Source: a virus (lineage: Duplodnaviria > Caudoviricetes). From it: a DNA stretch of 32,057 nucleotides. The notes under the pieces were generated by a model, which saw nothing but the letters and a program-made list of their open reading frames with translations, was not told the origin of the DNA and searched no databases. Made by a program: the position numbers and the translations under genes. The stretch lies in IMG/VR virus record IMGVR_UViG_3300048902_000295, positions 1 to 32,057 of that record; one strand, 5' to 3'. This document shows, one piece after another, positions 1-12,158 of this stretch; within the stretch, counting starts at the first letter, position 1, and each line of letters opens with the position of its first letter.

Positions 1-1002
1 ACCCGACGGGTTGAACTGACTTTGCGGCACGACGGCGATCGCGCCCTTCGCTACGGCGTCGAGCGTGACAACTTCCAAGCTCTCCTGCAGTGAGGTGTTG
101 GTCAGCGAAAGAGAAATCCACGGAGCCCAGTCGATCGCGTCTTGGCTCTCGAAGTCATCGTGATAAACGTACCGGCGCTTCCCGGCACGCATCTCGAACG
201 CTCCGGTTAAGAACTTATAAGCGTTCGGGTGAATCGGGCCCTTCGCCTTGGCGACGAGCCGCCGAGCCGGACCGGGCTTCTTCGTCTGCTCGTAGCCAAG
301 CGCGACGCCGAACTCCCAGAGCATCGACCAGGCGAGTGACGGCAGGCCGAAGGCGGTGATGCCCCAGACGTGAACGTCACCCTTTAAATCCGGTAGCAGT
401 TCTAGCGCGGTGTTCTGCCCCTTCGTCGTGGCGATGCGGCTCGTCATGATGAAGTCCTTCGTGCGCCGCCCGGTGAACGGCTTCCGGCTCGCGAAGTCAT
501 ACGGAAGGTACGGGTGGTAAACGAGCTTGAATCGTTTATCGTTCGGAAACCTTTCGCTCACCATCTTCGGCCGGGAGGTGATGATGGTGCCCGAGAAGCT
601 CTTCGTCGCCAGCATCGCCGCGATCGTCTCGTCGTGCTTCGAGTGATATGAGCCGTCGTGCAGCATCGTAGTCCACGGTGTGGAAGTCTGCTTCATCACC
701 TCAACGAAGTAAGGTTCGTGCCAATTCTTCTTCGATCGTCCGCCGCAGATCTGAGGCGCTTGGCAAATCAGGTCGGAAAGAACTATCAGGTCATAAGAGT
801 CGAGGACGTCTACCGCGTCCTTGATGCGATGGATTTGGTACCCGGCGGTCTGCCCCTCCCACGCGGAGAGCGCCTTACCGGAGTTGGAGAAGGTCACGAG
901 GTCGCCCTGGTACCCGAGCGGCTCCGCTCCCGTGACCCAGTGCTTCGCCACTTCGGTGACACCACAGATTCGCGGAAACCACTCGACGAACGCGATCTTC
1001 AT
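1..1002 (-). CDS. GT-B fold glycosyltransferase, possibly DNA-modifying (3' end runs off window)
   Basis: Not in the ORF track; translated by hand. ATG at 1002 overlaps the upstream stop (ATGA) and the frame is open to position 1. MKIAFVEWFPRICGV N-terminus, SRIATTKGQ, and ESLEVVTLDAVAKGAIAVVP resembling the GT-B E-x7-E/D motif. Confidence 0.75.
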   Translation of the reverse strand, partial: MKIAFVEWFPRICGVTEVAKHWVTGAEPLGYQGDLVTFSNSGKALSAWEGQTAGYQIHRIKDAVDVLDSYDLIVLSDLICQAPQICGGRSKKNWHEPYFVEVMKQTSTPWTTMLHDGSYHSKHDETIAAMLATKSFSGTIITSRPKMVSERFPNDKRFKLVYHPYLPYDFASRKPFTGRRTKDFIMTSRIATTKGQNTALELLPDLKGDVHVWGITAFGLPSLAWSMLWEFGVALGYEQTKKPGPARRLVAKAKGPIHPNAYKFLTGAFEMRAGKRRYVYHDDFESQDAIDWAPWISLSLTNTSLQESLEVVTLDAVAKGAIAVVPQSQFNPSG

Positions 1003-2816
1003 CCGACGCGCTCCACCAACCCACGCTCGTGCTCCAGGTGCCCGAGGTGCCAGCGCAAAATCCCCTCGGGGTTCGGACTGCTGGTCTGCCACCCGGCTTT
1101 CTTCACGTTCGCCACCATCTCGACGAACGTCAGCCCGGTCTTTCCGGCGGCGGCGAGCGCCCGGTAAACGTTCGCGTTGTGAGTCTTCTCGGTCGGCATC
1201 AGCAGCTGCTTCGCGTAGTCGGCGTTCGTCGCCGGCTTCGCTACGATGCGGAAGCGAGCGTTGGAGACGTCGGCGCGCTTCACGCGTGGTTTCTTCAAGA
1301 TGGCGGCTTTCTCTTGGTTGTAGGCTCCTGACTGAATGGCCATGTTGATCTTTCGGTTCTTTTCAGTTCTCTCTGTGACAATCGGAGTTGTGATGGCGAC
1401 CGGCCACTCGAGCTCGGTAGTTATTTCTTTCAATAGCTCCTGGGACTTCGCGTAAAGCTCTGAGAGCTTCTGAATGCGCTTCGCGATCTTTTCTTTGTTC
1501 ACTTTATCATCTCCATTTTTAGAAATAAAAATTTGAGCCTGTTCGTTTCCCTTTACGTGGCCAATGTTGACATACGTTTCTTCCGATCGGCGTGGCAATG
1601 GTCGCTGGTTGAAGCTGAAGTCACGCTGGGCCCAGTCGCCGCGACCGATCAGGAAGTTGGCCGTGTCGCCAGGCTGCAGCGCTTGCACCGAAGTCATGTT
1701 GATGGTCACCTCGCGCTGCCGGTCTTCGAGGTTCGCGATCACCTGTTCGAGCAGCCACTGCGCGACCGGCGGACAAACCCCTTGCGATCGCAGCGACAGG
1801 TGCGTCTCCATCGAGAACCAGTAGTCGAGCGGGTAGCCCATCAGCGCGTTGTACGCCGGGGCCGTCAGCGGCTTGCCGTTATACAGCCAGCAGGAAGTGG
1901 ACATCACGGTGGGAGCGTAGCCTTCCGGGTCGAGGACCACGGGGTTGTTCGAGACGAACAGCGAGTAGCACCACTTCTTCAAGAACTCGCGATCGTGGCC
2001 GGGCTTCACCGCCACCAAGCCGGCGCGAGGCAGGATGCGGTTCGTCGCGCCGTACCCGTGCTCACCGGAGAGGACTTCGTCGGCGACGCGCGGGGACATT
2101 CCGGCGGCGATCATCTTCTCCCGCTGGATGCGAATCGTTCGCTCGACGCCGCGAATCTGTTCGCCAGGCTTCACCTTCGCCAGCACTTCGGAGACGCAGC
2201 GCCGATTCGCGTCGTGGTGAAAGACGAACGGCAACGGGCAAACGTTCTTCCGCACCAGCACGGCCCAGAACCGAGGTCGCCACTGCGCGACGCCGAACGT
2301 GACGGAGTTTTGGAGGACTCGAAATACGTGGTAACCATGATGAGTTGCTAATTCATCATAGAATCTTTTCGTCGGCTCGTAGGCGTTTTTCACCGATTCG
2401 ACGAGAATGGCCAACGGTTTCTTTTCGAGCGAATACTCCAGCACCTTTCGAGTCTGCGCGAAGTACGTCCCATCGAGGCCGCGAGTCGTCGCTCGCGACG
2501 GCGCGTTGACGTTCTGAGCGCAGAAGCCGGCGCACGGCGGGTGGGCGATCACCAGCGCATCCTTCAGCTTTACGTCCGGCCACGGGTACGCTTCGACGTA
2601 GTTCAGGTCAGGAAAGTTGTGCCGCTGAATCTCGAGCCCGTGGCCAGAGTCCTCGAACGAGCCAATAACTTCTAAACCTAAGTTATTGGCAGCGACGGTC
2701 AGCGACCCGGCGTAACCGTTGATGACTAAGACAGGTGGCCCACCACTGCCACGCGATCGCGTGGCAGTCTTCGATGTGACACGAAGTTCTTTCAACCGCT
2801 GTTCAATTTTAGACAC
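999..2816 (-). CDS. C5-cytosine DNA methyltransferase-like protein with C-terminal coiled coil and winged-helix extension
   Basis: Motif I variant INGYAGS, catalytic HPPCAGF, motif VI variant VESV, motif VIII QWRPR, motif X-like QGVCPPVA. GGAGG lies 7 nt before the GTG. Confidence 0.8.
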   Translation of the reverse strand: MSKIEQRLKELRVTSKTATRSRGSGGPPVLVINGYAGSLTVAANNLGLEVIGSFEDSGHGLEIQRHNFPDLNYVEAYPWPDVKLKDALVIAHPPCAGFCAQNVNAPSRATTRGLDGTYFAQTRKVLEYSLEKKPLAILVESVKNAYEPTKRFYDELATHHGYHVFRVLQNSVTFGVAQWRPRFWAVLVRKNVCPLPFVFHHDANRRCVSEVLAKVKPGEQIRGVERTIRIQREKMIAAGMSPRVADEVLSGEHGYGATNRILPRAGLVAVKPGHDREFLKKWCYSLFVSNNPVVLDPEGYAPTVMSTSCWLYNGKPLTAPAYNALMGYPLDYWFSMETHLSLRSQGVCPPVAQWLLEQVIANLEDRQREVTINMTSVQALQPGDTANFLIGRGDWAQRDFSFNQRPLPRRSEETYVNIGHVKGNEQAQIFISKNGDDKVNKEKIAKRIQKLSELYAKSQELLKEITTELEWPVAITTPIVTERTEKNRKINMAIQSGAYNQEKAAILKKPRVKRADVSNARFRIVAKPATNADYAKQLLMPTEKTHNANVYRALAAAGKTGLTFVEMVANVKKAGWQTSSPNPEGILRWHLGHLEHERGLVERVG

Positions 2817-2819
2817 GAC

Positions 2820-3011
2820 TAAGCCTCCACCTGGTTTCTCGATCCGTCGTCATCGCTATTCGCCCGATTCGCCGCTTACCAGTTTAAAGTTCTTCAACCG
2901 TAAACTAACCACGTGTTACGCGACGCTCACTGTAAGTTGCAGTGATACTTTTACAGACATATCAGCCTCGGGCCGAACGGGCTTTGAACCGAGAAACCAG
3001 GAGGAGGCTTA
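2820..3011 (-). promoter_or_regulatory. Structured RNA leader sequestering the methyltransferase RBS
   Basis: Inverted repeat 2820-2841/2990-3011 with one mismatch includes the GGAGG (2824-2828) and encloses several nested hairpins. Confidence 0.6.
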
Positions 3012-3674
3012 CGCCGCCTCCACCACCTTTACCAACCCTTCTTTTTCCAACAGGTTCAGGTCGCCGCGCACGTTCGCTTCCGTGGGTGCGCCGCCGGACT
3101 TCGTCGAGTAGCGCTTGGTCGCTTTCACCGCGTCGAGGACATCCGCCAACGTCCAAGCCCGGTCGGACTTTCCCAGCAGGACCTGCGCGACCAGTGGAAC
3201 GTGGCTGGTCACCTTTTCGTCTTCGACCTTCTTCGCCAGCTTCGACTCGGCGACCTTCGACTTCAGGACCGAGTAGGTCACCGACTTCTTGCTGGCGACT
3301 TCCTTCGACTTCTTTACGGCTCGAGTGGCTTTTGCTTTCGTTGCCATGGTGGCTCCTTTTAGTTTTAAGTCTGCTACTTTGTTTCGGTAGTCCTTCAGCC
3401 GCGCTTCGTGATTTAGCGCAACGTTCGGCGGAACCGAACCAAGCTCTACGAACCACGCCAGCTGAAGTTCCCCGGCGACTACGAGAAGTAGTGGCAAGGT
3501 TTCGACGAGGCCGTGAACCGGCAAGCCGAGTTCGACGGCGATCACCTCCAGCTGATCGTGGGTTAAGGTTGAGACCGACGTGAAGAGTTTATTTTGCCCA
3601 CCGGCGGCGAGCGGCGCGTCGAGGTGAAACGAACCGACGTGGAGTAGACCGCCATCGAACGTTATCTTTGGCAA
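3009..3674 (-). CDS. DNA-binding protein with Lys-rich linker and C-terminal winged helix; strong internal start at 3347
   Basis: TTG start at 3674; AAAGGAGCCACC-ATG at 3347 gives MATKAKATRAVKKSK; C-terminal WTLADVLDAVK...EANVRGDLNLLEKEGLV. Confidence 0.65.
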   Translation of the reverse strand: MPKITFDGGLLHVGSFHLDAPLAAGGQNKLFTSVSTLTHDQLEVIAVELGLPVHGLVETLPLLLVVAGELQLAWFVELGSVPPNVALNHEARLKDYRNKVADLKLKGATMATKAKATRAVKKSKEVASKKSVTYSVLKSKVAESKLAKKVEDEKVTSHVPLVAQVLLGKSDRAWTLADVLDAVKATKRYSTKSGGAPTEANVRGDLNLLEKEGLVKVVEAA

Positions 3675-3868
3675 GGTGGTCTCTCTTTCTGGAAGCGACG
3701 CAGCGCCGCTTCCATGTTTTTGAGAGCCCGGTGGTCTGACGGGGTTCGCGGCACGACGAACGTCTGGCCCGACGGCAGCAGCCAGACATCGCTTTTGCTG
3801 TGACGCTTGAGGGTCGCGCCCAGGCTTCGAAGAGTTCGAGCCATGAGGCGGCCAACGGCATTCGACAT
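3662..3868 (-). CDS. HicA-like small basic protein
   Basis: 68 aa, LRSLGATLKR...WLLPSGQTFVVPRTPSDHRALKN pattern; AAGGGG RBS; own promoter upstream. Confidence 0.55.
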   Translation of the reverse strand: MSNAVGRLMARTLRSLGATLKRHSKSDVWLLPSGQTFVVPRTPSDHRALKNMEAALRRFQKERPPCQR

Positions 3869-3896
3869 TAGTTCCCCTTTCTTCGAGTGGTGAATG

Positions 3897-3934
3897 ATTA
3901 TATACCGCTCGAGGCTAAAGTAAATAGTTTATTT
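3897..3934 (-). promoter_or_regulatory. Sigma70-type promoter, copy 2
   Basis: AAATAAACTA-TTTACT-N16-TATAAT; same architecture as 9237-9274. Confidence 0.75.
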
Positions 3935-4120
3935 ATCATCCCAGTTCTGAGGGCCGCAGTCGAGATACCGGGCGTGCTGTTCCTCTCGCGTGGCCTGGCG
4001 TTCGCGGACCGCTCGGCCACGCCAGTAGGCGATTGGCTTCGCGTGAGCTTGGCGCGATCGGCGAGCCCCTTCCTTGACGCAGCGCTCGCAGCGGCAGTCG
4101 GTTCGGTACGCGTGTCTCAT
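3929..4120 (-). CDS. Hypothetical protein with CRCERC motif
   Basis: AAGGAG RBS, ATGA coupling to the upstream gene. Confidence 0.65.
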   Translation of the reverse strand: MRHAYRTDCRCERCVKEGARRSRQAHAKPIAYWRGRAVRERQATREEQHARYLDCGPQNWDDK

Positions 4121-4380
4121 GACTGCTCCTTCAAATAATCATTTAGGCTAAATTTCTTAATGTGGTACCCACTACCAAAGAAAGTTAATTGGTATGGGAT
4201 GCGATTGACTTCACAATGATGCAGCACGTATGGAAGCGTCACCTTTGAAGCACTATGGTTTGATGAACCTGTCGATTCAAACATGGCGATAATGGCTCGA
4301 ACCATCGCCACACTGATTCTTCCGCGTGGACGGAATAGTGGTGGGCACTTCGCTCGCCGCCGCCCATCTGTACGTTTCAT
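4117..4380 (-). CDS. Hypothetical protein
   Basis: GGAGG RBS, ATGA overlaps at both ends. Confidence 0.6.
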   Translation of the reverse strand: MKRTDGRRRAKCPPLFRPRGRISVAMVRAIIAMFESTGSSNHSASKVTLPYVLHHCEVNRIPYQLTFFGSGYHIKKFSLNDYLKEQS

Positions 4381-4814
4381 GACTTCCTCCGATACACCGT
4401 GGCGCGAAAGTCACGGTGGTGAATCCGGTAGCCGGCCAAGTCGTTCAGCTGCCAGCCCGAGAGCGCGAACGGCTTCAGCTCCCAAACCACGATCGTCTCC
4501 GCGCCGGACGCCGCGAGCCGCTTCCGCCAGTTTTCGACGGAGTGGCGCGGCGACGTGCGGACCGAAGCGTGGGCGGCCTTCGCGTGGTTCAGCGTCTTCA
4601 TGAACTCCGGCCTGGTGTGGAACACCGAGTGAACGATCACCGCGCCGTAGAGGTTTGATTCCTTGAGAAAGTCTCGACCGGCGCTTAAATTGATCACGTC
4701 AAGATCCTCGGGCCGATAATCCCGAACCCACCCGTGTTGAACGGCGACGTCTAACCGCATCCAATCGTCCAAGGTCAGTGGGGAATCGGCTCCAACCATC
4801 GCAATCGACTTCAT
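4377..4814 (-). CDS. Hypothetical protein
   Basis: 145-aa ORF with AAAGGA RBS, in operon orientation. Confidence 0.65.
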   Translation of the reverse strand: MKSIAMVGADSPLTLDDWMRLDVAVQHGWVRDYRPEDLDVINLSAGRDFLKESNLYGAVIVHSVFHTRPEFMKTLNHAKAAHASVRTSPRHSVENWRKRLAASGAETIVVWELKPFALSGWQLNDLAGYRIHHRDFRATVYRRKS

Positions 4815-4928
4815 AATTAAGGGTCCTTTCCGCCCCGTACGGGGCCGAACTACGTTAAGGAGTTGACATAAGAGGCACTATTCGGTCGCCGGACGGGGTT
4901 TCCCACGTCCGGCGAAGCCGCTTAAGGG

Positions 4929-6017
4929 TCAAGCCGCTTGGGCGATCGCCGTCCACTGGCCCTTCGCCAGGGTGATGACCTCGCCCCCGGCGCGCTCGAG
5001 CTCGGTCGCCTCCTCGTACGAGTCGACCTTCTGCGCGTAGGCGGTGATGGCGTTGGACAACCCCCACTGAGAAAGGTCATGTCCCTTGATGAGCTCGGTC
5101 AGGATGCCGGACTTATGCTTTTCGCCCAGCTTCAGCACTTCGATCGCGGCGTCGAGCGACTCCACCGGGTCCTTTTCTATCTTGTTGTTGGCGGTGACCG
5201 TCAGCAGCTTCGCCGTTTGGCGGAACGCCGCCTCGTCGAACGCGTGAGAAACTACGTCGCGCATCTTTAGCATCAAGGCGCGATCGTCCGCCGCGCGGGT
5301 TTCGTCGGCGAAGACTTCCTGGGCCGTTTCAATTTCTGCCGTGTGCCGACCGATGTGGTAGCGCTTCAACCCGGAGGCGGGAATGATGGCTCCGTTCAAG
5401 CAGTTGAGGATGTACACCAGCTCCTCGATGTTAAAAGCGCCGCAGCCGACTTCCGAGTTAGAGATGACCACCCCGGCTTGGACCGGCTCGCCCTTCTTTA
5501 CGTCCACGGTGAGCCGAGTGTTCACCGCCTTGATGTACAATCGCTTCTCGGTCACCTCGCACGACTCGACGCGCAGGCCTGAACCTTTCTCCAACAGCGT
5601 GGGCAGGATCGCCATCGCCATCATGTGGTTGCTGATCACCCGGTAGCGGTTCGAGAGCCAGCCCCGGACTCGCCCGTCGAGCGTGCGCACCAGCCGCTGG
5701 TCGTTGATTTCCGCAAGCCAGCTGTTGACGTTGTGCGCGAGGAGGCGCGGGTTGGTCGCCAGCATCCGGTCGTAGTAGTTCGCCGGAATTTTGAGGTACC
5801 CACCCAGCTGAGAGTGAGCGTGATCCTGAAGCGGGAAGTGGCCGAACTGCCCAACCTGCAGCTCGACGGCCGAAGGCGGCACGACCTTGCCGCGCTCGAA
5901 GTTTGGCTCAGTCACCGTCATCGACACCTGCTTTGCCGGCGATCGAAAGTCACGAGCTGATTCGTTCTGTCGTTCGAGTTCCTGCGCGAGTTCGGTTAGT
6001 GATCTGCCTGATTTCAT
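4929..6017 (-). CDS. DUF932/DUF945-like phage/plasmid protein
   Basis: RTLDGRVRGWLSNRYRVISN, GVVISNSEVGCG, CLNG, WGLSNAITAYAQ, ELERAGG motifs; AAAGGAG RBS. Confidence 0.75.
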   Translation of the reverse strand: MKSGRSLTELAQELERQNESARDFRSPAKQVSMTVTEPNFERGKVVPPSAVELQVGQFGHFPLQDHAHSQLGGYLKIPANYYDRMLATNPRLLAHNVNSWLAEINDQRLVRTLDGRVRGWLSNRYRVISNHMMAMAILPTLLEKGSGLRVESCEVTEKRLYIKAVNTRLTVDVKKGEPVQAGVVISNSEVGCGAFNIEELVYILNCLNGAIIPASGLKRYHIGRHTAEIETAQEVFADETRAADDRALMLKMRDVVSHAFDEAAFRQTAKLLTVTANNKIEKDPVESLDAAIEVLKLGEKHKSGILTELIKGHDLSQWGLSNAITAYAQKVDSYEEATELERAGGEVITLAKGQWTAIAQAA

Positions 6018-6043
6018 GGTAGTGCTCCTTTGTTTTTGAGACC

Positions 6044-6164
6044 CTCTGGGCCTCGCGGGACATAAGATGCGTAACGTGGGGAATCGAACCCCACACTCTT
6101 GGCCAAGAGCCGCTGAAGACGCCCACAGCGCCGCTACTAACCTTATGCCCCGCGAAGGCCAGAG
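6044..6164 (-). ncRNA. tRNA-like structured RNA lacking an anticodon loop, on a long stem
   Basis: T-arm UGGGG-UUCGAUU-CCCCA, acceptor-like GUAGCG/CGUUAC, two further arms, and an outer stem 6044-6066/6142-6164. Confidence 0.6.
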
Positions 6165-6184
6165 AAAAGCCTTCGCTTATTTCT

Positions 6185-6811
6185 CTACAGTTTCACCTCC
6201 TTAGTCTGCCGCTCATCTTCGCGAACGCCGCATGCCCACTGGTACACCGTGTTCTTCCGAACGTAGTTGCCGATGCGGTTGACCAGGTGCTGGTCCATGA
6301 GCTCCTGCACCAGCTGCCGAACCAGCTCCACGTGATATGTGGTCGCCTTCGCGATCTGCTTCTCCGTCTTATCACCAGTGCTTAACACAGATAGAATGAA
6401 GCTGAAGTTAGAGGTCAAGCTGGTGATGACTTCGGCGTAGCGCGCGTCCTGCTCCGCGCTTTCGCGGCGTCCCAGTTCCGAGTTCAGCTCGTCGTAGGCG
6501 GCGACGAACAGCGCGCAGTGAACGTCGAAGCGCGGCCCGGCGGACTGCAGCTCACCATACGAGCTGATGCCAGCATACCCAAGTTCTTTCTGCTCGAGCC
6601 GACGAGAAACTTCTACCATCTTTTCGGACATCCACCGAGTCTCTTCGAGCAGCCGTTCGCGGCGATCGCCGACGCGATCGGCGAGCGTCCCCAACCTGAC
6701 GTCGGCTTCGTCGTTCGACTCGAATCGGAGGCGAGCCAGCTTCTCGAGGACCTTCGCCATCGATTCGCCTTCAGCAACTATGGTGCGGATTTCTTTCATC
6801 GTGATCGACAT
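6185..6811 (-). CDS. Hypothetical protein, coiled coil plus C-terminal winged helix
   Basis: AAAGGAG RBS; ILSVLSTGDKTEKQIAKAT...LVQELMDQHLV resembles a wHTH. Confidence 0.7.
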   Translation of the reverse strand: MSITMKEIRTIVAEGESMAKVLEKLARLRFESNDEADVRLGTLADRVGDRRERLLEETRWMSEKMVEVSRRLEQKELGYAGISSYGELQSAGPRFDVHCALFVAAYDELNSELGRRESAEQDARYAEVITSLTSNFSFILSVLSTGDKTEKQIAKATTYHVELVRQLVQELMDQHLVNRIGNYVRKNTVYQWACGVREDERQTKEVKL

Positions 6812-6838
6812 GTCAATTCTCCTTTTTATTTCTAAGCG

Positions 6839-7399
6839 CTATGCGCTTTCGTTCCAGTGTTTATCCAGGCAGTCGGAAGAGCAGAACTCCCCGTCGCAGT
6901 GCTCGCAGCCAAGCGTCTTGCCACAGTCCGGGTCGAACTCCGCGCCGCAGGTCACGCAGATTCGCGGAACGTTGTTCTCGACCCACTCGATGATCGCCTG
7001 CCGCAACCCCTCGGTCAGCTGGTGAGTCCGTATCGGCGAGAGGTCACCGTGCTTCGCCTCGGGGAACACCTTCACCACCGCATCCCAAAGCGCGGTGTCG
7101 GCTTTTTCGATCGCCACGGCCGTTCGCGCGTCGCGGTTCTTCGTCAACACAGTGATGATCCACTCCGTGATGTTAGCCGGAGTCGGCAGCCCGTCGCCGG
7201 GCTCGGCGTTTTCCGGGTCAACGACAATTCTCGAGTCACCGCTGAACTCGCCCGTCGAGCTGTTCCAGCTCCACGTCGGGTTGTTGTCTCCGAACGCTAG
7301 CCCGTCTACCGAGATGTAACCGGGATACTCGACCGTGGCCGCGTATCCCTTTTCTTTGAGCGAGTCCACCGCGTTTTGCATGACGATTAAGTTATTCAT
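6839..7399 (-). CDS. Hypothetical protein with C-terminal Zn-finger
   Basis: CVTC...CEHC...FCSSDC...H; the ATG at 7399 fits the AAGGAG spacing better than the TTG at 7405. Confidence 0.7.
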   Translation of the reverse strand: MNNLIVMQNAVDSLKEKGYAATVEYPGYISVDGLAFGDNNPTWSWNSSTGEFSGDSRIVVDPENAEPGDGLPTPANITEWIITVLTKNRDARTAVAIEKADTALWDAVVKVFPEAKHGDLSPIRTHQLTEGLRQAIIEWVENNVPRICVTCGAEFDPDCGKTLGCEHCDGEFCSSDCLDKHWNESA

Positions 7400-7401
7400 T
7401 T

Positions 7402-7530
7402 TCAATTCTCCTTTGAAAGATTGACGACCACGAACCGAACGGCAGCGATGACGGCGAACAGAATGATCAGCCCACTGACTTCGAGGACCGCGCCCCAGAT
7501 TGTTTTGATGGCGAAGATTATGTTTTCCAT
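7402..7530 (-). CDS. Small membrane protein (42 aa)
   Basis: Hand-translated MENIIFAIKTIWGAVLEVSGLIILFAVIAAVRFVVVNLSKEN; GGAGG upstream; fills the gap between neighbours. Confidence 0.6.
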   Translation of the reverse strand: MENIIFAIKTIWGAVLEVSGLIILFAVIAAVRFVVVNLSKEN

Positions 7531-7531
7531 T

Positions 7532-7930
7532 TCACTTTCCTCCCATCGCCGCAACCACGGCGGCTGCCGCGAAGTTGAACGTGCGATCTCTTCCCGACTG
7601 GCAGACGACCGGATACTTCCGACGCTTACCGTCCAACCCGACGATCGTGTACGCCGTGCCGTGATCGATGAAAGACCGATCGAGCCACTCGGGCTTCAGG
7701 TCATACATCCGGCCCCAGTCCAAGTACTCTTTTCGCTCGCGGGTCATCACGGTGCCGTCGGCTGATCGCGCTGCGATGTCGATCACCAGCGAGCCGGTCG
7801 GCCCGTTCGAGAACTTCCCGCGCCCTCGTCTGAGCACCACCCCGTGCTTCAACCCCACCTGCTCGATCGCCATGTGAATGTCGTTGGCGATCGCTTCGAG
7901 CTTCCGGCGGTCGATCACTATCGTTTTCAT
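7532..7930 (-). CDS. Hypothetical phage protein
   Basis: AAGGAG RBS; 132-aa ORF. Confidence 0.7.
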   Translation of the reverse strand: MKTIVIDRRKLEAIANDIHMAIEQVGLKHGVVLRRGRGKFSNGPTGSLVIDIAARSADGTVMTRERKEYLDWGRMYDLKPEWLDRSFIDHGTAYTIVGLDGKRRKYPVVCQSGRDRTFNFAAAAVVAAMGGK

Positions 7931-8049
7931 TTTATTTTCTCCTTTTTGAATTGTTGTTTGTATTCCAGCTTCGCTTCGCGGTTCAACCGCTCGACCGGCC
8001 AGTTGTAATACTTTTTCATTTCACGTTTGATTTGCTTCAAAGTTTTCAT
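7927..8049 (-). CDS. Small basic hypothetical protein (40 aa)
   Basis: Hand-translated MKTLKQIKREMKKYYNWPVERLNREAKLEYKQQFKKEKIK; ATGA overlaps at both ends. Confidence 0.55.
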   Translation of the reverse strand: MKTLKQIKREMKKYYNWPVERLNREAKLEYKQQFKKEKIK

Positions 8050-8261
8050 GGCCGCACCCAGTTAGAAAAGTCTTCCGGTCTGAGCTCCTGCACGATCGTC
8101 GTCGGTCCGTCGACACACTTAATGTGCGCGTTCGTGAACCGGCAACCTTTGCCGTGGGCGATCTGCTCCGTGGCATTCTGAAAAGCGAACGTCGCCGCCG
8201 CTTCGCTTTCGGACTCGAACACCATGGTTGCGACGTACTTCTTTTTCTTTTTTATGATCAT
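8046..8261 (-). CDS. Hypothetical protein
   Basis: ATGA-coupled chain of small ORFs. Confidence 0.6.
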   Translation of the reverse strand: MIIKKKKKYVATMVFESESEAAATFAFQNATEQIAHGKGCRFTNAHIKCVDGPTTIVQELRPEDFSNWVRP

Positions 8262-8539
8262 AGGTATGTGCTCACGATGATCAACCCGTCACCGGTGTTG
8301 GGAAACACTTCCCAGCGCCATTCAGAACACATCGTTTTGAGGTTCGTTCTGATTTGCTTTCGGATTTCTTCGGTGTCATTTGGTTTAACCCAAATCATAA
8401 AAATGTATTGCGAGTCGTTATCCACTGACGGGTGAACTTCGTCCATGCGAATAACTCTGTGGGAGATGGCTGTTAAAAAGTCGAAGCGTTCAACATCGTA
8501 TACATCCTTTTGTGAAATGCGTTCGTGTAAGCTCATCAT
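8258..8539 (-). CDS. Hypothetical protein
   Basis: ATGA-coupled, AAGGA upstream. Confidence 0.6.
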   Translation of the reverse strand: MMSLHERISQKDVYDVERFDFLTAISHRVIRMDEVHPSVDNDSQYIFMIWVKPNDTEEIRKQIRTNLKTMCSEWRWEVFPNTGDGLIIVSTYL

Positions 8540-8727
8540 AGCAGCACGTCCTTCACCGCGATCGTCACCACCCGGTTGCCGTCAGTCGAGCTCACCCGAA
8601 CTTTCGGCTCGCCGGTCGTCTCGAGCTTCGCCCGGACGTACCCGGTCAGCAGCTGCCCGGAAGCGAGGCGAACGACCACCGCGTCATTCACGTTCACGTC
8701 GTTGATAGTTAGTGGAGTAAATTTCAT
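8536..8727 (-). CDS. Small beta-rich (SH3/KOW-like) hypothetical protein, first early gene
   Basis: GAGAGG RBS; VNVNDAVVVRL...GYV...KVRV pattern. Confidence 0.65.
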   Translation of the reverse strand: MKFTPLTINDVNVNDAVVVRLASGQLLTGYVRAKLETTGEPKVRVSSTDGNRVVTIAVKDVLL

Positions 8728-8732
8728 TTTAG

Positions 8733-8821
8733 TTAACCTCTCGTCATCAGTGCCGGTAGGTCAAGTCCGGCAGACGAGCGGCGCGAGAAATTGCTTCTCG
8801 GTAGGAGCCGCTCGTTTCGAG
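8733..8821 (-). ncRNA. Type II hammerhead ribozyme with pseudoknot
   Basis: CUC-GAAA-CGAGCGGC...GCCGCUCG-UC^-UGCCGG-(ACUUGACCUA)-CCGGCA-CUGAUGA-C-GAG-AGGUUAA. The core is complete, and loop I UUGACCU pairs with 3' AGGUUAA. Predicted cut between 8773 and 8772. Confidence 0.9.
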
Positions 8822-9230
8822 TGTCGGTCGCGGTAGGGCACCGCGACGGTCGTAAAATTCGACGGACGGTTAAACCGGGGGAAGGCCGTCCGCCATCATT
8901 GGCGGACGGGGTTTCCGGTAGCCCATCAAATTTCTGGTTATCGTTTATATACGCAGGTTTCGTTCGCTCTTCATTCGAGGCGTCGGGTCGTAACCGATAA
9001 CAGCGCCATTCGCCGAACGTCGAAACCGTTCGCTTCGTTTAGGCTAGGGAATCTCGTGGCGGCCTTTCGGCCCGTTTCCCCTCGGGGTGGCTTCCCCCGG
9101 TTTAACCTACGGCGCGGAACGTCCGCGCCGGTCGCCGCTACGCTCGCCGAAGATCACTAGCCGAGCGAACGGCCATGACGGCCCCGTGGTTCGCTCGGTT
9201 CGTGTACGTCCGGTCTGCGCTATTAAGCAT
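8773..9230 (-). ncRNA. Candidate large structured ncRNA (~460 nt)
   Basis: No credible long ORF; perfect 17-bp stem 8868-8884/9091-9107 and many hairpins; bounded by a promoter and the hammerhead cut site. Confidence 0.6.
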
Positions 9231-9236
9231 ATACGT

Positions 9237-9274
9237 ATTATATACGCTTGAAGGGTGGTGTAAATAGTTTATTT
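9237..9274 (-). promoter_or_regulatory. Sigma70-type promoter, copy 1 (early region)
   Basis: AAATAAACTA-TTTACA-N16-TATAAT; predicted transcription start near 9230. Confidence 0.8.
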
Positions 9275-9275
9275 C

Positions 9276-9300
9276 AAAAAAGGTACCCTAGGTACCTTTT
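9276..9300 (-). terminator. Intrinsic terminator ending the late/lysis operon
   Basis: AAAAGGTACC-TAG-GGTACC-TTTTTT just after the spanin-like gene. Confidence 0.65.
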
Positions 9301-9335
9301 ATGTTATCTTTCAAAGGTTGTTATATTTTGATTAA

Positions 9336-9971
9336 CTACTTGCAGTGTCCCGACCCGCAAGCCACGATCGCGATGATGCCGGCATCTACGACGAAGTGCC
9401 CGAGCCGCGTCGCCGCCCGTCGCTTCCACGAGCCGCCGGTCGCTGTCTTCTTCCACTGGTCGCGCTCGTCGGTTACCAACGAAAGCTTCGTTTCCGCCGC
9501 GACCCGGTTCTGGTCCGCGATCGCGGCAGCCTTTTGAGCGGCGGCGTAATTCACCTTGCAGTCTTCGCAGTCCTTAAAGTACGCACGCACCGGCGGCGAG
9601 TCCGGCAGCTCGACGACCGGCGTCGGTCGCGGATTGTCCGCCGTCGCGATCGGCGTCACGACGGTCGGCGTGGTTTTCAACCCGATGAGCTGCGCGAGCA
9701 GCGCCGCGAACTGCGGCGAGCTTTGCGCGGCCCCGAACTGCCGCCCCACCGTGGCCAACCCGTCGGCCTGATCCTTCTGAACTTGCTTCAGTTGGTCGGC
9801 GAGTTCTTTCTGTTGTGCTGTGAGCTTGTCGAACGCCGCTTGGTCCGCCGCCACCTTCGCCTCGGCGCGGAGCGCGGCGTCGTGAGCCTGCAGCCACTCG
9901 TAGCCGAGGAACGCGCCGAACAGCACGAGGCCAATCGCGATCGCGATCAGGATCTTATGGTATACGTCCAT
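9336..9971 (-). CDS. Spanin-like membrane protein
   Basis: N-terminal TM (ILIAIAIGLVLFGAFLGY), coiled coils, Pro-rich linker, directly after the endolysin; ATG 9971 preferred. Confidence 0.55.
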   Translation of the reverse strand: MDVYHKILIAIAIGLVLFGAFLGYEWLQAHDAALRAEAKVAADQAAFDKLTAQQKELADQLKQVQKDQADGLATVGRQFGAAQSSPQFAALLAQLIGLKTTPTVVTPIATADNPRPTPVVELPDSPPVRAYFKDCEDCKVNYAAAQKAAAIADQNRVAAETKLSLVTDERDQWKKTATGGSWKRRAATRLGHFVVDAGIIAIVACGSGHCK

Positions 9972-9973
9972 GG

Positions 9974-10525
9974 TTAGAACTTCCCTTCCCAGTCTCGCCA
10001 CACGGCGGCGAGCCCACCCTCGCGGTACAAATACCGCATGTTGTCATCCGGCGTCGCCGGCAGCTCGGGCAGATAGAGGTGCGGCGCGTCAGGAAACGTT
10101 CGCCACTCCGCACCTTCGGCGAAGCCGCACTCCTTCGCCGTCGCGAGGAACACCTTCCACCGCTCGTCGCCGCCCGACCAATCACCGTGCCAGTCGGGGA
10201 AGTCCGGGTCATTCGGAACGGCGTCGCCAGCGTAACCGAAGTTGTGCGCTGACTCGCCGCCCTTCGCCTTGGTCACGGGGAGGCCGAGCGGATGCTGCGG
10301 ACAGCTTCCGACGGGCCGCACCACGCCACCGTGCTTGCAGTCCACGCCGGGCGTCGTCCGGCCCTTCGCGTAGAGCTCGTCTTGCCCAGCCCACGTTCGT
10401 ATGCCTTGAGTGAGCCGCAGCTGGATGGCGAGCGAGGACTCCGCCAGTCGCTGGTCAAGCTGAGTGAACCTGGATTGAAACACCGGGTGCAGTTCACCAA
10501 CTCGAGTTGCGGTGATCGCCTCCAT
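9974..10525 (-). CDS. Endolysin, M15 family (L-Ala-D-Glu peptidase-like)
   Basis: QGIRTWAGQDELYAKGR, SAHNFGYAGD (SxHxxGxAxD), DAPH. Confidence 0.88.
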   Translation of the reverse strand: MEAITATRVGELHPVFQSRFTQLDQRLAESSLAIQLRLTQGIRTWAGQDELYAKGRTTPGVDCKHGGVVRPVGSCPQHPLGLPVTKAKGGESAHNFGYAGDAVPNDPDFPDWHGDWSGGDERWKVFLATAKECGFAEGAEWRTFPDAPHLYLPELPATPDDNMRYLYREGGLAAVWRDWEGKF

Positions 10526-10526
10526 G

Positions 10527-12158
10527 CTATTGCACCACCGCCGTCACGTTCGTCGGCGGCGAGAGCACCGGTGAGATCGAGCCACCAAACTGGAACGCCC
10601 CCGGACTCCACTTCGCGGGAGCCGCCGGACGCGCCACGCCGGCAAAGTCAGTGCAGAGATCGGTGAGGTTTCCGGTGCAAAGCGCCGAAAGGTTCGTGCC
10701 CTTCTCGAACAGCGTGGAGCCCACGCCCGGAATCCCGGTCGAGGTATTGACGGCGAAGTTCGACGGCGAGTCGACGATCGAGTTCGCTTCCTGTCCGCTG
10801 CCGGCGGCGAAGAAAGCTTTCCACTGCGTGAAGTTCGCGAACGAACAGTTGCTAACGCACGCGATGAAGTACGTGGCGTTCGACGGCGTGAAGCCGTAGA
10901 AGTTGTAGTCCAGTCCTCCGCCGACGAACGTCGGCGTGGTGCTGCCGATCGAGTTCACGCCGGGGCCGCCGCTGCCGGGGCTGCTGAGGACCGTGACGTT
11001 GTTCCTAAAGTCAGAGTTCGTCCCCTGCAGCTTGTTGAGCGGGTGGTCCTCGCCGCTGACGGTGACCAGCGTGTTGTTGTACGCCTTCGCCGCGCCGCCG
11101 TCTCCGACCGTCAGGCAGAGCATGCCATTGTTCCACGTCCGCGAAGCCGGCGAGAGGAACACGTTGTTGAACGCCGTCATGCTCGTGCCGACCGTCGCGC
11201 CCTCGTTGAAGATCCCCGCCGTGTTGTAGACGCCTTGGTCGCCGTAGAACTTGTTGTTACTGATGAAGACGTTTTTATAGATTCCGCCGACGTTCCCAAC
11301 TTGATAAAGGTGCACGCCGTCGTGGTGGTAGCAGGAGCTGCCGCCGCAGAGCGTGGCGGTCGTATCCCAGTTCGCCCAGTCGTGAAACAGGTCGTGGTTG
11401 ATCAGGACCGTGTCCGTCGTCTGGTTCGTCACGCCCACCGCCACGTTGTGATCCGCGTTGTAAATCTCGGTGTACGTCACCGAAACGTTCGACGAGCTCA
11501 GCCCCGTGTAGATCGCCCAAAGCACGTCGTGAATCTGGCTGTTCGTCACGGTCAGCGTCGAGACGCTCGTCGCGTGGATCGCCGATGGGTCGGGCGGAGA
11601 CGGCGCGTGGTCCGTGGCCACGGTGTGAACGTAGGCGTTCTGCAGCAACATGTTCTTGATGGTGATGCGGCTCGCGCCGTCGAAGTTCGCAAGCTCCGAC
11701 GCGCCCACCTGGTTGGCGAGCGTCGAGCCGTTGGCCGTCGACTCGATGGTGCCGTTAGGCACGAACGTGCCGAGGAACGGGTTGCCGGTGCCGCCGCCGT
11801 CGTAAACGAAGTCCGTCTTGCCGTTGCCGTTGAGGCAGCCCGTCGCGGGGCAGACCGGCTGGCTGAGCTTCGCGCCGGACTCCCAGATCACCGTGACCGG
11901 GTTTCCGATCGCGCCAGAGCCAGCGTTGACGACCGTCGTGCCGATCGTTCCGCAGAGATGGACGTGCGTGCCCGGCCCGATCTGCACGCCGGTCGGAGTG
12001 CCAGCGGTCCAGTTCGAGCCAGAATTGTAGTAGCTTACCGGCTTCGCGTTCGCGCAGTCCGCGCCGGTTTGCGCTCCGGCCCCGGCGTTCGAGATGTACG
12101 CATCGTTGGCGAAGACGGGTGCCGCTATCGCTAGAAAAAGAAACAGTAGCTTTCGCAT
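10527..12158 (-). CDS. Secreted right-handed beta-helix (pectin-lyase-like) protein, putative depolymerase
   Basis: Signal peptide MRKLLFLFLAIAAPVFA; IGPGTHVHLCGT, HHDGVHLY, Asn-ladder repeats (FNNVF, YNNTLV, FRNNV, LDYNFY), GAFQF tail. Confidence 0.8.
   Translation of the reverse strand: MRKLLFLFLAIAAPVFANDAYISNAGAGAQTGADCANAKPVSYYNSGSNWTAGTPTGVQIGPGTHVHLCGTIGTTVVNAGSGAIGNPVTVIWESGAKLSQPVCPATGCLNGNGKTDFVYDGGGTGNPFLGTFVPNGTIESTANGSTLANQVGASELANFDGASRITIKNMLLQNAYVHTVATDHAPSPPDPSAIHATSVSTLTVTNSQIHDVLWAIYTGLSSSNVSVTYTEIYNADHNVAVGVTNQTTDTVLINHDLFHDWANWDTTATLCGGSSCYHHDGVHLYQVGNVGGIYKNVFISNNKFYGDQGVYNTAGIFNEGATVGTSMTAFNNVFLSPASRTWNNGMLCLTVGDGGAAKAYNNTLVTVSGEDHPLNKLQGTNSDFRNNVTVLSSPGSGGPGVNSIGSTTPTFVGGGLDYNFYGFTPSNATYFIACVSNCSFANFTQWKAFFAAGSGQEANSIVDSPSNFAVNTSTGIPGVGSTLFEKGTNLSALCTGNLTDLCTDFAGVARPAAPAKWSPGAFQFGGSISPVLSPPTNVTAVVQ

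Follow-up and report, generated by a model that had tools for sequence, protein, structure and literature searches.

An uncatalogued folded leader RNA with a predicted hammerhead-defined end in the early operons of two related phages

Introduction

A hammerhead ribozyme before the first early ORF of a virus and phage leaders that can adopt two folds are both already known. In HHphage of haloviruses HF1 and HF2, the closest described case, the available text places a hammerhead a few bases 5' of the first ORF of the early transcript (PMC3088659). For IsrK of Gifsy-1 and CI/seqA/seqC of P4, a leader domain is described, in the accessible part of the source, as able to pair with a downstream complement at similar energies (PMC4825925). 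The role of hammerheads in phage operons is presented as an open question in the available portions of two reports (PMC6765202, PMC3088659).

We analyzed IMGVR_UViG_3300048902_000295, a linear virus record (61% complete) found in soil metagenomes, over its entire 32,057 nt (the window). The hammerhead of this record resembles HHphage in lying on an early polycistronic transcript and in having a pseudoknot between loop I and the 3' tail (PMC3088659, available text), but it closes a conserved folded leader of 460-535 nt and contains one extra base after A9; the HHphage descriptions, as far as they were accessible, mention no conserved upstream RNA (PMC3088659). As in IsrK and CI, a phage leader contains a folded domain and its downstream complement and can adopt two folds, with borderline support in the one relative found, and a short form, here predicted, is released from the leader (PMC4825925, accessible part). 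Whereas the short forms of IsrK and CI are reported there to arise by termination or processing and their output is a ribosome site or termination, a ribozyme would generate the end of the present RNA, which once freed would contain both core and complement, and no such output is evident.

The RNA also shares with GOLLD, ROOL and OLE the character of a large structured phage or bacterial RNA of uncertain function (PMC12286853, in part). GOLLD and ROOL are often found near tRNA islands, whereas none lies near the window RNA, which further differs from all three in its predicted ribozyme-defined end and in its two competing folds, where those RNAs have a single ornate one. Like the putRNA of HK022, it is a folded RNA in an early phage transcript (PMC9378689, available text), but its leader is much longer and predicted to be cut by a ribozyme, and no terminators that it might suppress were found.

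Results

Setting of the structured region

The tail, lysis, DUF932 and methylase genes of the window are carried on the minus strand, on which a 458-nt structured region sits between the lysis genes and a series of short early-type ORFs (Table 1). Given that the phage genes and the surrounding ORFs share this strand, the RNA is read from 9230 down to 8773. The initial annotation had placed a promoter before this region and a ribozyme after it; both are present, and both are conserved in the homologous locus described below (L128), where the early promoter occupies the same position (424-451). The palindrome at the end of the lysis genes was given by the terminator scan on the plus strand only, and no such hairpin was seen in L128. 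No intrinsic terminator was listed on the minus strand within positions 1-11000 of the window.

Table 1 Features of the window. All lie on the minus strand; state A and state B denote the two alternative folds.
Feature	Position	Remark
Terminator-like hairpin with U tract, end of upstream lysis genes	9276..9300	seen in sequence
Sigma-70-type early promoter, 16-nt spacer	9237..9264	11/12 consensus bases
Predicted released RNA, ~458 nt	8773..9230	start inferred from promoter, end from hammerhead
30-codon ORF starting at predicted RNA start	9138..9230	peptide not conserved
P1: helix of 10 bp with a one-sided bulge and a conserved hairpin at its tip	9161..9198	
P1 strands	9198-9189/9170-9161	in initial annotation
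P2 hairpin, 9 bp	9110..9130	window form; L128 strand joins 14-bp helix around core
P2 strands	9130-9122/9118-9110	in initial annotation
Three-way-junction core, 70 nt (state A)	9040..9109	conserved in L128
17-bp perfect helix	9107-9091/8884-8868	encloses 206 nt
GGCC-GAAA-GGCC	9072-9061	in initial annotation
UAGCCU/GGGCUA	9046-9041/8924-8919	in initial annotation
CGAACG/CGUUCG	9032-9027/9019-9014	in initial annotation
Irregular arm of state B	8956..9027	p 0.93; not conserved as such
GUUAUCG/CGAUAAC	9001-8995/8943-8937	in initial annotation
Pq domain (state A)	8854..8934	holds 10-bp hairpin 8909-8886 and anti-core strand
10-bp hairpin strands	8909-8900/8895-8886	in initial annotation
Anti-core strand, perfect complement of 9107-9091 (17-bp helix, state B)	8868..8884	
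9-bp hairpin just 5' of ribozyme	8827..8847	strands 8847-8840/8834-8827; absent from L128
Type II hammerhead, RF02276	8822-8732 (element drawn 8733..8821)	Rfam E 3e-4, 31.5 bits
Shine-Dalgarno-like site of first early ORF	8742-8737	within hammerhead stem II and pseudoknot
First early ORF, 63 aa	8727-8536	unlike ORF at same place in L128
Second early ORF, 93 aa, no family	8258..8539	kept in L128, 46/93 identical
DUF932 gene, same early region	4929..6017	anchor for finding relatives

A protein-coding reading of the 458-nt region was rejected, the ORFs being short and unconserved. L128 also has a 30-codon ORF at 461-553; its stop aligns with that of the window ORF, and the peptides are unlike. 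Every score in an atlas search with the 93-aa ORF was below threshold. No integrase or repressor was found among the 35 ORFs scanned in this incomplete record, and ARAGORN called no tRNA gene in it. One named endolysin relative (46%), from Bryobacterales, gives a weak hint at the host.

Family and homologue searches

The region had been described from the sequence alone as unrecognised, and it indeed fits no known family: nothing in Rfam matched the body, including RNase P, tmRNA, SRP, 6S, group I and II introns and riboswitches, and the best matches in the body stayed below 20 bits, far below the cut-offs. The check that had been suggested against large motifs likewise gave no match to GOLLD, ROOL or OLE, either at gathering or at E<=10, and the C4 model RF01695 had no match at E<=10. 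A resemblance to the cobalamin, ZTP, pistol or VS motifs was rejected, no Rfam match being found. The RNA family may be new. In the literature covered, mostly non-subscription, no description of a two-state phage RNA released by a hammerhead was found, although motif lists in supplements could contain one.

Relatives were sought by aligning 14 close DUF932 proteins and retrieving 100 loci with the alignment. One homologue of the RNA was found, L128 (nhmmer E 2.4e-19), which spans approximately 458-992 (about 535 nt) and is syntenic with the window, with the same promoter and a hammerhead 5' of the first ORF. Divergence between the two phages is considerable, with identity at 63 of the 150 four-fold sites of DUF932 (42%). 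BLAST in phages and plasmids returned short chance matches only. Viral contigs were scanned five times by DNA pattern (9, 116, 89, 43 and 8 loci) and genomes once (0 loci), and protein-anchored scans were made with the spanin (0 loci) and DUF932 (1, 80, 20 and 10 loci); in these scans, which may miss very closely related records, L128 was the only homologue to emerge. A model of the core, run over the window and 376 loci, matched only its two training sequences; the best other match reached 18.9 bits (E 0.036), with its helices broken and in a locus preselected by a shared pattern. The model matched none of 10 whole records, and the close DUF932 loci L129, L130 and L136 showed no RNA match within their upstream sequence of at most 1.7 kb.

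As to expression, no RNA data set was listed among those containing the record. Sequencing run X3 yielded one contig of depth 2 over 9144-9305, too thin to count, in which the P1 loop carries a single difference from the window and the promoter spacer carries two. Comparison of three sequencing runs with L128 gave two short unrelated pieces only.

Folding of the region and its conserved core

All the complementary strands listed in the initial annotation were found in the sequence, on the minus strand, and this strand is indeed structured beyond chance (z -6.55, 0/100 shuffles; plus strand, z -4.58). Helices of at least 9 bp number 23 on the minus strand versus 7.6 ± 2.9 in shuffles (0/200), and 22 on the plus strand versus 17.8 (35/200). 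The inner helices that had been proposed are likewise present, but two of them, CGAACG/CGUUCG and GUUAUCG/CGAUAAC, pair with a probability of 0.02 each on the transcribed strand, where a GGUUUCG/CGAAACC arm (p 0.93) takes their place. The region is not a single fold: a second, better conserved fold is incompatible with the 17-bp helix and with UAGCCU/GGGCUA. Nor was support found for the domain closed by the 17-bp helix as the conserved structure: the 5' strand of this helix is invariant in L128, and only 9 nt of the partner are kept.

The conserved structure consists of P1 and a three-way junction, and the compensatory changes that both show relative to L128 bear out the idea of structure at the RNA level. 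All 10 pairs of P1 are kept, five with compensatory changes and none broken. The junction is composed of a closing helix, a GAAG-loop hairpin, a GGGA/UCCC stem, a GGCC hairpin and an invariant GCCACG; its 20 pairs are all kept (three compensatory changes, one one-sided change), both phages give a like fold, confined to the transcribed strand, and RNAalifold finds the junction again when given the raw window/L128 alignment. Taken over the 33 pairs of the body helices, 17 substitutions amount to eight double changes and one single change, with no pair broken, a record equalled in 0 of 200000 random placements, although the helices were chosen from the same two sequences, which favors this result. 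Identity extends to 54 of the 77 columns of the core alignment, including a 17-nt invariant run at 9107-9091. Given that unpaired bases are also invariant (in this run and in GCCACG), the fixed junction bases suggest a binding surface or a tertiary fold.

The 3' half of the RNA aligns poorly between the two phages, and the stability of the entire L128 RNA is not out of the ordinary (z +0.25). L128 carries two copies of a 17-nt motif in its variable 3' half (774-790 and 829-845), each in a hairpin; the motif is absent from the window. On the comparison of these two full sequences, the locus specifies what we judge to be a real, conserved and uncatalogued phage RNA, with an end that the ribozyme is predicted to define.

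The hammerhead ribozyme

The hammerhead score is below the Rfam gathering cut-off for RF02276 (31.5 versus 37 bits), and the L128 hammerhead, which has a loop III of about 70 nt, was not listed under RF02276 at E<=10. The core bases and the cleavage triplet are nevertheless present, with L128 differing only at the variable position 7. In both phages stem I is closed, as is stem III, and stem II is open (6, 9 and 3 bp), with two compensatory changes, and the pseudoknot between loop I and the 3' tail comprises 7 bp in the window and 6 in L128, with two further compensatory changes. The whole comparison thus covers 25 pairs with four compensatory changes and one terminal pair broken. Fast type II hammerheads typically possess loop I/tail pseudoknots of this sort, according to the available parts of two reports (PMC3088659, PMC11300833). 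G10.1 does not directly follow A9: one extra base is inserted, which is C in the window but U in L128. Natural insertion here is known; in a viroid hammerhead, in the accessible text, U speeds cleavage and C is detrimental (PMC3705267). Cleavage is judged likely, and the predicted cut falls between 8773 and 8772, shortly 5' of the first early gene. Stem II and the pseudoknot overlap the ribosome site of this gene.

Stem III is predicted to form in both states of the window RNA (p 0.95 and 0.88), and release therefore need not depend on the state. In L128, a 14-bp pairing of 694-707 with 893-907 (p ~0.72) would block the 5' strand of the hammerhead. A conserved anti-ribozyme strand was rejected, since this pairing is strong in L128 and has a probability of 0.0 in the window.

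The related phage L130 carries two canonical type II hammerheads in its early region, at 895-960 and 3236-3300; the former lies directly 5' of a ribosome site, and L130 has no long leader. In this phage group, hammerhead and twister ribozymes occur within the same operon.

Two alternative folds

The 17-bp helix (state B) uses the 5' strand of the junction itself, and the long helix and the junction (state A) are therefore mutually exclusive. In state A, a 14-bp helix (8934-8921/8867-8854) occupies the flanks of the anti-core strand; L128 has an analogous helix at 765-775/878-888, for which the alignment is less certain. The 17-nt complement of the window was reached by none of 5000 shuffles, and the 9 nt kept in L128 were equalled by 259 of 5000, which is borderline. 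An alternative partner of the core 3' strand is kept in L128 with 6 of 6 pairs (547/50000 simulations), this partner being one of two copies and picked post hoc. Conservation of state B thus has modest, borderline support.

In an unforced two-state test, we compared the best fold with the best fold lacking the long-range pairs of the first. For window 9112-8850, the best fold was the long helix (z -3.8) and the rival was the junction fold (z -4.7, 0/100), the two differing by 126 pairs; on the plus strand, the rival reached only z -1.9. For L128 (556-892), the same pair of folds arose without forcing, separated by 0.7 kcal; both lay within the shuffle range. During transcription, the window junction helices are predicted to form with probabilities of ~0.55-0.9 until the anti-core strand (8884-8868) is transcribed and to fall to ~0 thereafter, whereas the L128 junction is predicted to persist at ~0.4-0.8. 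At equilibrium, the window prefers the long helix by ~7 kcal and L128 the junction by ~2 kcal, and a fixed timer is therefore not predicted for both phages. Blocking of the 5' ORF region flips L128 from the junction to the long helix and leaves the balance of the window unchanged. We regard the junction as solid and give a switch between the two folds about even odds.

Discussion

In the reading that we favor, with a probability of roughly 40%, the locus encodes an early non-coding RNA released by the ribozyme, with P1 and the junction as its working part and the anti-core strand as an off-switch. The evidence from sequence and comparison comprises the promoter, the covarying P1, junction and hammerhead, the invariant unpaired bases and the 17-nt complement. 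P1 and the three-way junction of the early-operon leader are predicted from folding to form first; they would bind a host factor until the downstream complement probably refolds the core into an off state, the long helix. The hammerhead would likely cut off a free 458-nt RNA, cleavage in the cell leaving a 2',3'-cyclic phosphate on this RNA and a 5'-OH on the message, and the freed RNA would survive, have a partner and act in the first minutes of infection. Its early position is what might speak for an anti-defence role. A timer, in which the conserved junction of a ribozyme-released RNA captures a host factor of defence or transcription just after infection and the RNA then turns itself off, or is switched by ligand binding, through refolding onto its own antisense strand, appears to us unlikely. 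Against the reading that we favor count the hammerheads of L130, which lie before early genes with no long leader and also speak against a special role of the cut; the extra base of the window, which is the C described as detrimental in a viroid hammerhead; the modeled 14-bp pairing in L128, which would block its hammerhead; and, also in L128, the ordinary stability of the RNA and the borderline anti-core strand.

Almost as likely as this released RNA is a leader switch acting in cis, in which the junction senses a ligand, a protein, a ribosome on the 30-codon ORF or another copy of the RNA, the choice of fold sets cleavage or early-gene expression, and the RNA cut off is a waste product or serves as a feedback copy, as in IsrK or P4 CI. 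The leader position would suit such a switch, as would an invariant, aptamer-like core with its complement lying 3' of it (an aptamer/anti-aptamer layout), the coverage of the first gene's ribosome site by stem II and the pseudoknot, the flip of the L128 fold on blocking of the 5' ORF region, and the precedent of IsrK in Gifsy-1, so far as its report was accessible (PMC4825925). However, the window states show no difference in output: stem III is present in either one, and the probability of the anti-ribozyme pairing is 0.0. Given that the hammerhead forms in either state and that no minus-strand terminator is listed in 1-11000, a cis output is not evident; the anti-core strand and the first start codon are also 140 nt apart, and blocking of the ORF did not move the balance in the window. 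The same missing terminators weigh on a nascent RNA that, like HK022 put, would bind RNA polymerase and prevent pausing or termination, with the hammerhead trimming the message later. The RNA would be the first made from the early promoter and its compact core is predicted to fold early, and put itself acts so in the available text (PMC9378689), but the window leader has no boxA-like match, the second early promoter has no such leader, and cleavage would sever the tether; we consider this improbable.

We assign still less weight to the idea of an undescribed self-cleaving ribozyme formed by the junction itself, alone or together with P1. The junction bases are invariant, the operon of this phage group contains hammerhead and twister ribozymes, and new classes have been discovered in such neighborhoods (PMC6765202, accessible part), but the body matches no Rfam ribozyme family and no cleavage site can be indicated. 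Pairing of core and anti-core between molecules might instead build an RNA oligomer of the GOLLD, ROOL or OLE kind, whose cages are held together by kissing loops, as the available text describes (PMC12286853). In favor of this analogy are the size of the RNA, its phage provenance and an exposed GAAG loop with complementarity to the anti-core strand; against it are the lack of any match to GOLLD, ROOL or OLE, the missing tRNA island and the poorly aligned 3' half, and its likelihood appears slightly lower again. A DNA-level origin, packaging or injection signal is the least probable of all: long perfect inverted repeats fold on both strands (DNA energies -120.7 and -118.9), yet the core folds on the transcribed strand only in both phages, 12 of 135 pairs (15 helices counted) are G-U on that strand, and a promoter and a ribozyme flank the region.

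Because the hammerhead defines the predicted end of a conserved uncatalogued RNA, the proposal that a ribozyme releases a functional RNA becomes directly testable at this locus. The invariant 70-nt junction is a candidate for a new aptamer, protein-binding module or ribozyme. If both folds are used, the locus would provide a natural example of a switch linked to a ribozyme as phage infection begins, and if the RNA is both released and fold-switching, it would be a new kind of early phage RNA.

The suggestion that the operon is RNA-programmed found no support, the RNA having no match longer than 14 nt elsewhere in the window; guide-like targeting was rejected on the same best match (14 nt, E 0.045). 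This 14-nt stretch is shared with a hairpin region 3' of DUF932 (4815-4925, minus strand; z -2.61). In L128, the slot after DUF932 holds a twister-P5 ribozyme (4617-4680, 39.8 bits), and none was found in the window slot. On the same strand at 6035-6180, the window has a tRNA-like cloverleaf (T-arm, UUCA loop) with a closing stem of ~20 bp (z -5.68), which matches tRNA-Sec weakly (20.3 bits, E 1.4) and was not called by ARAGORN; the corresponding slot of L128 contains a different long hairpin with only the 3' end in common. The non-coding slot 5' of the methylase gene (2820-3005, minus strand) has complementary ends, its part at 2860-3005 is of ordinary stability (z -0.23), and L128 and L130 carry different sequence there. 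A second copy of the early promoter is located at 3924-3897 in the window (slot 3897-3934, minus strand) and at 5281-5308 in L128; it precedes a short leader and no ribozyme.
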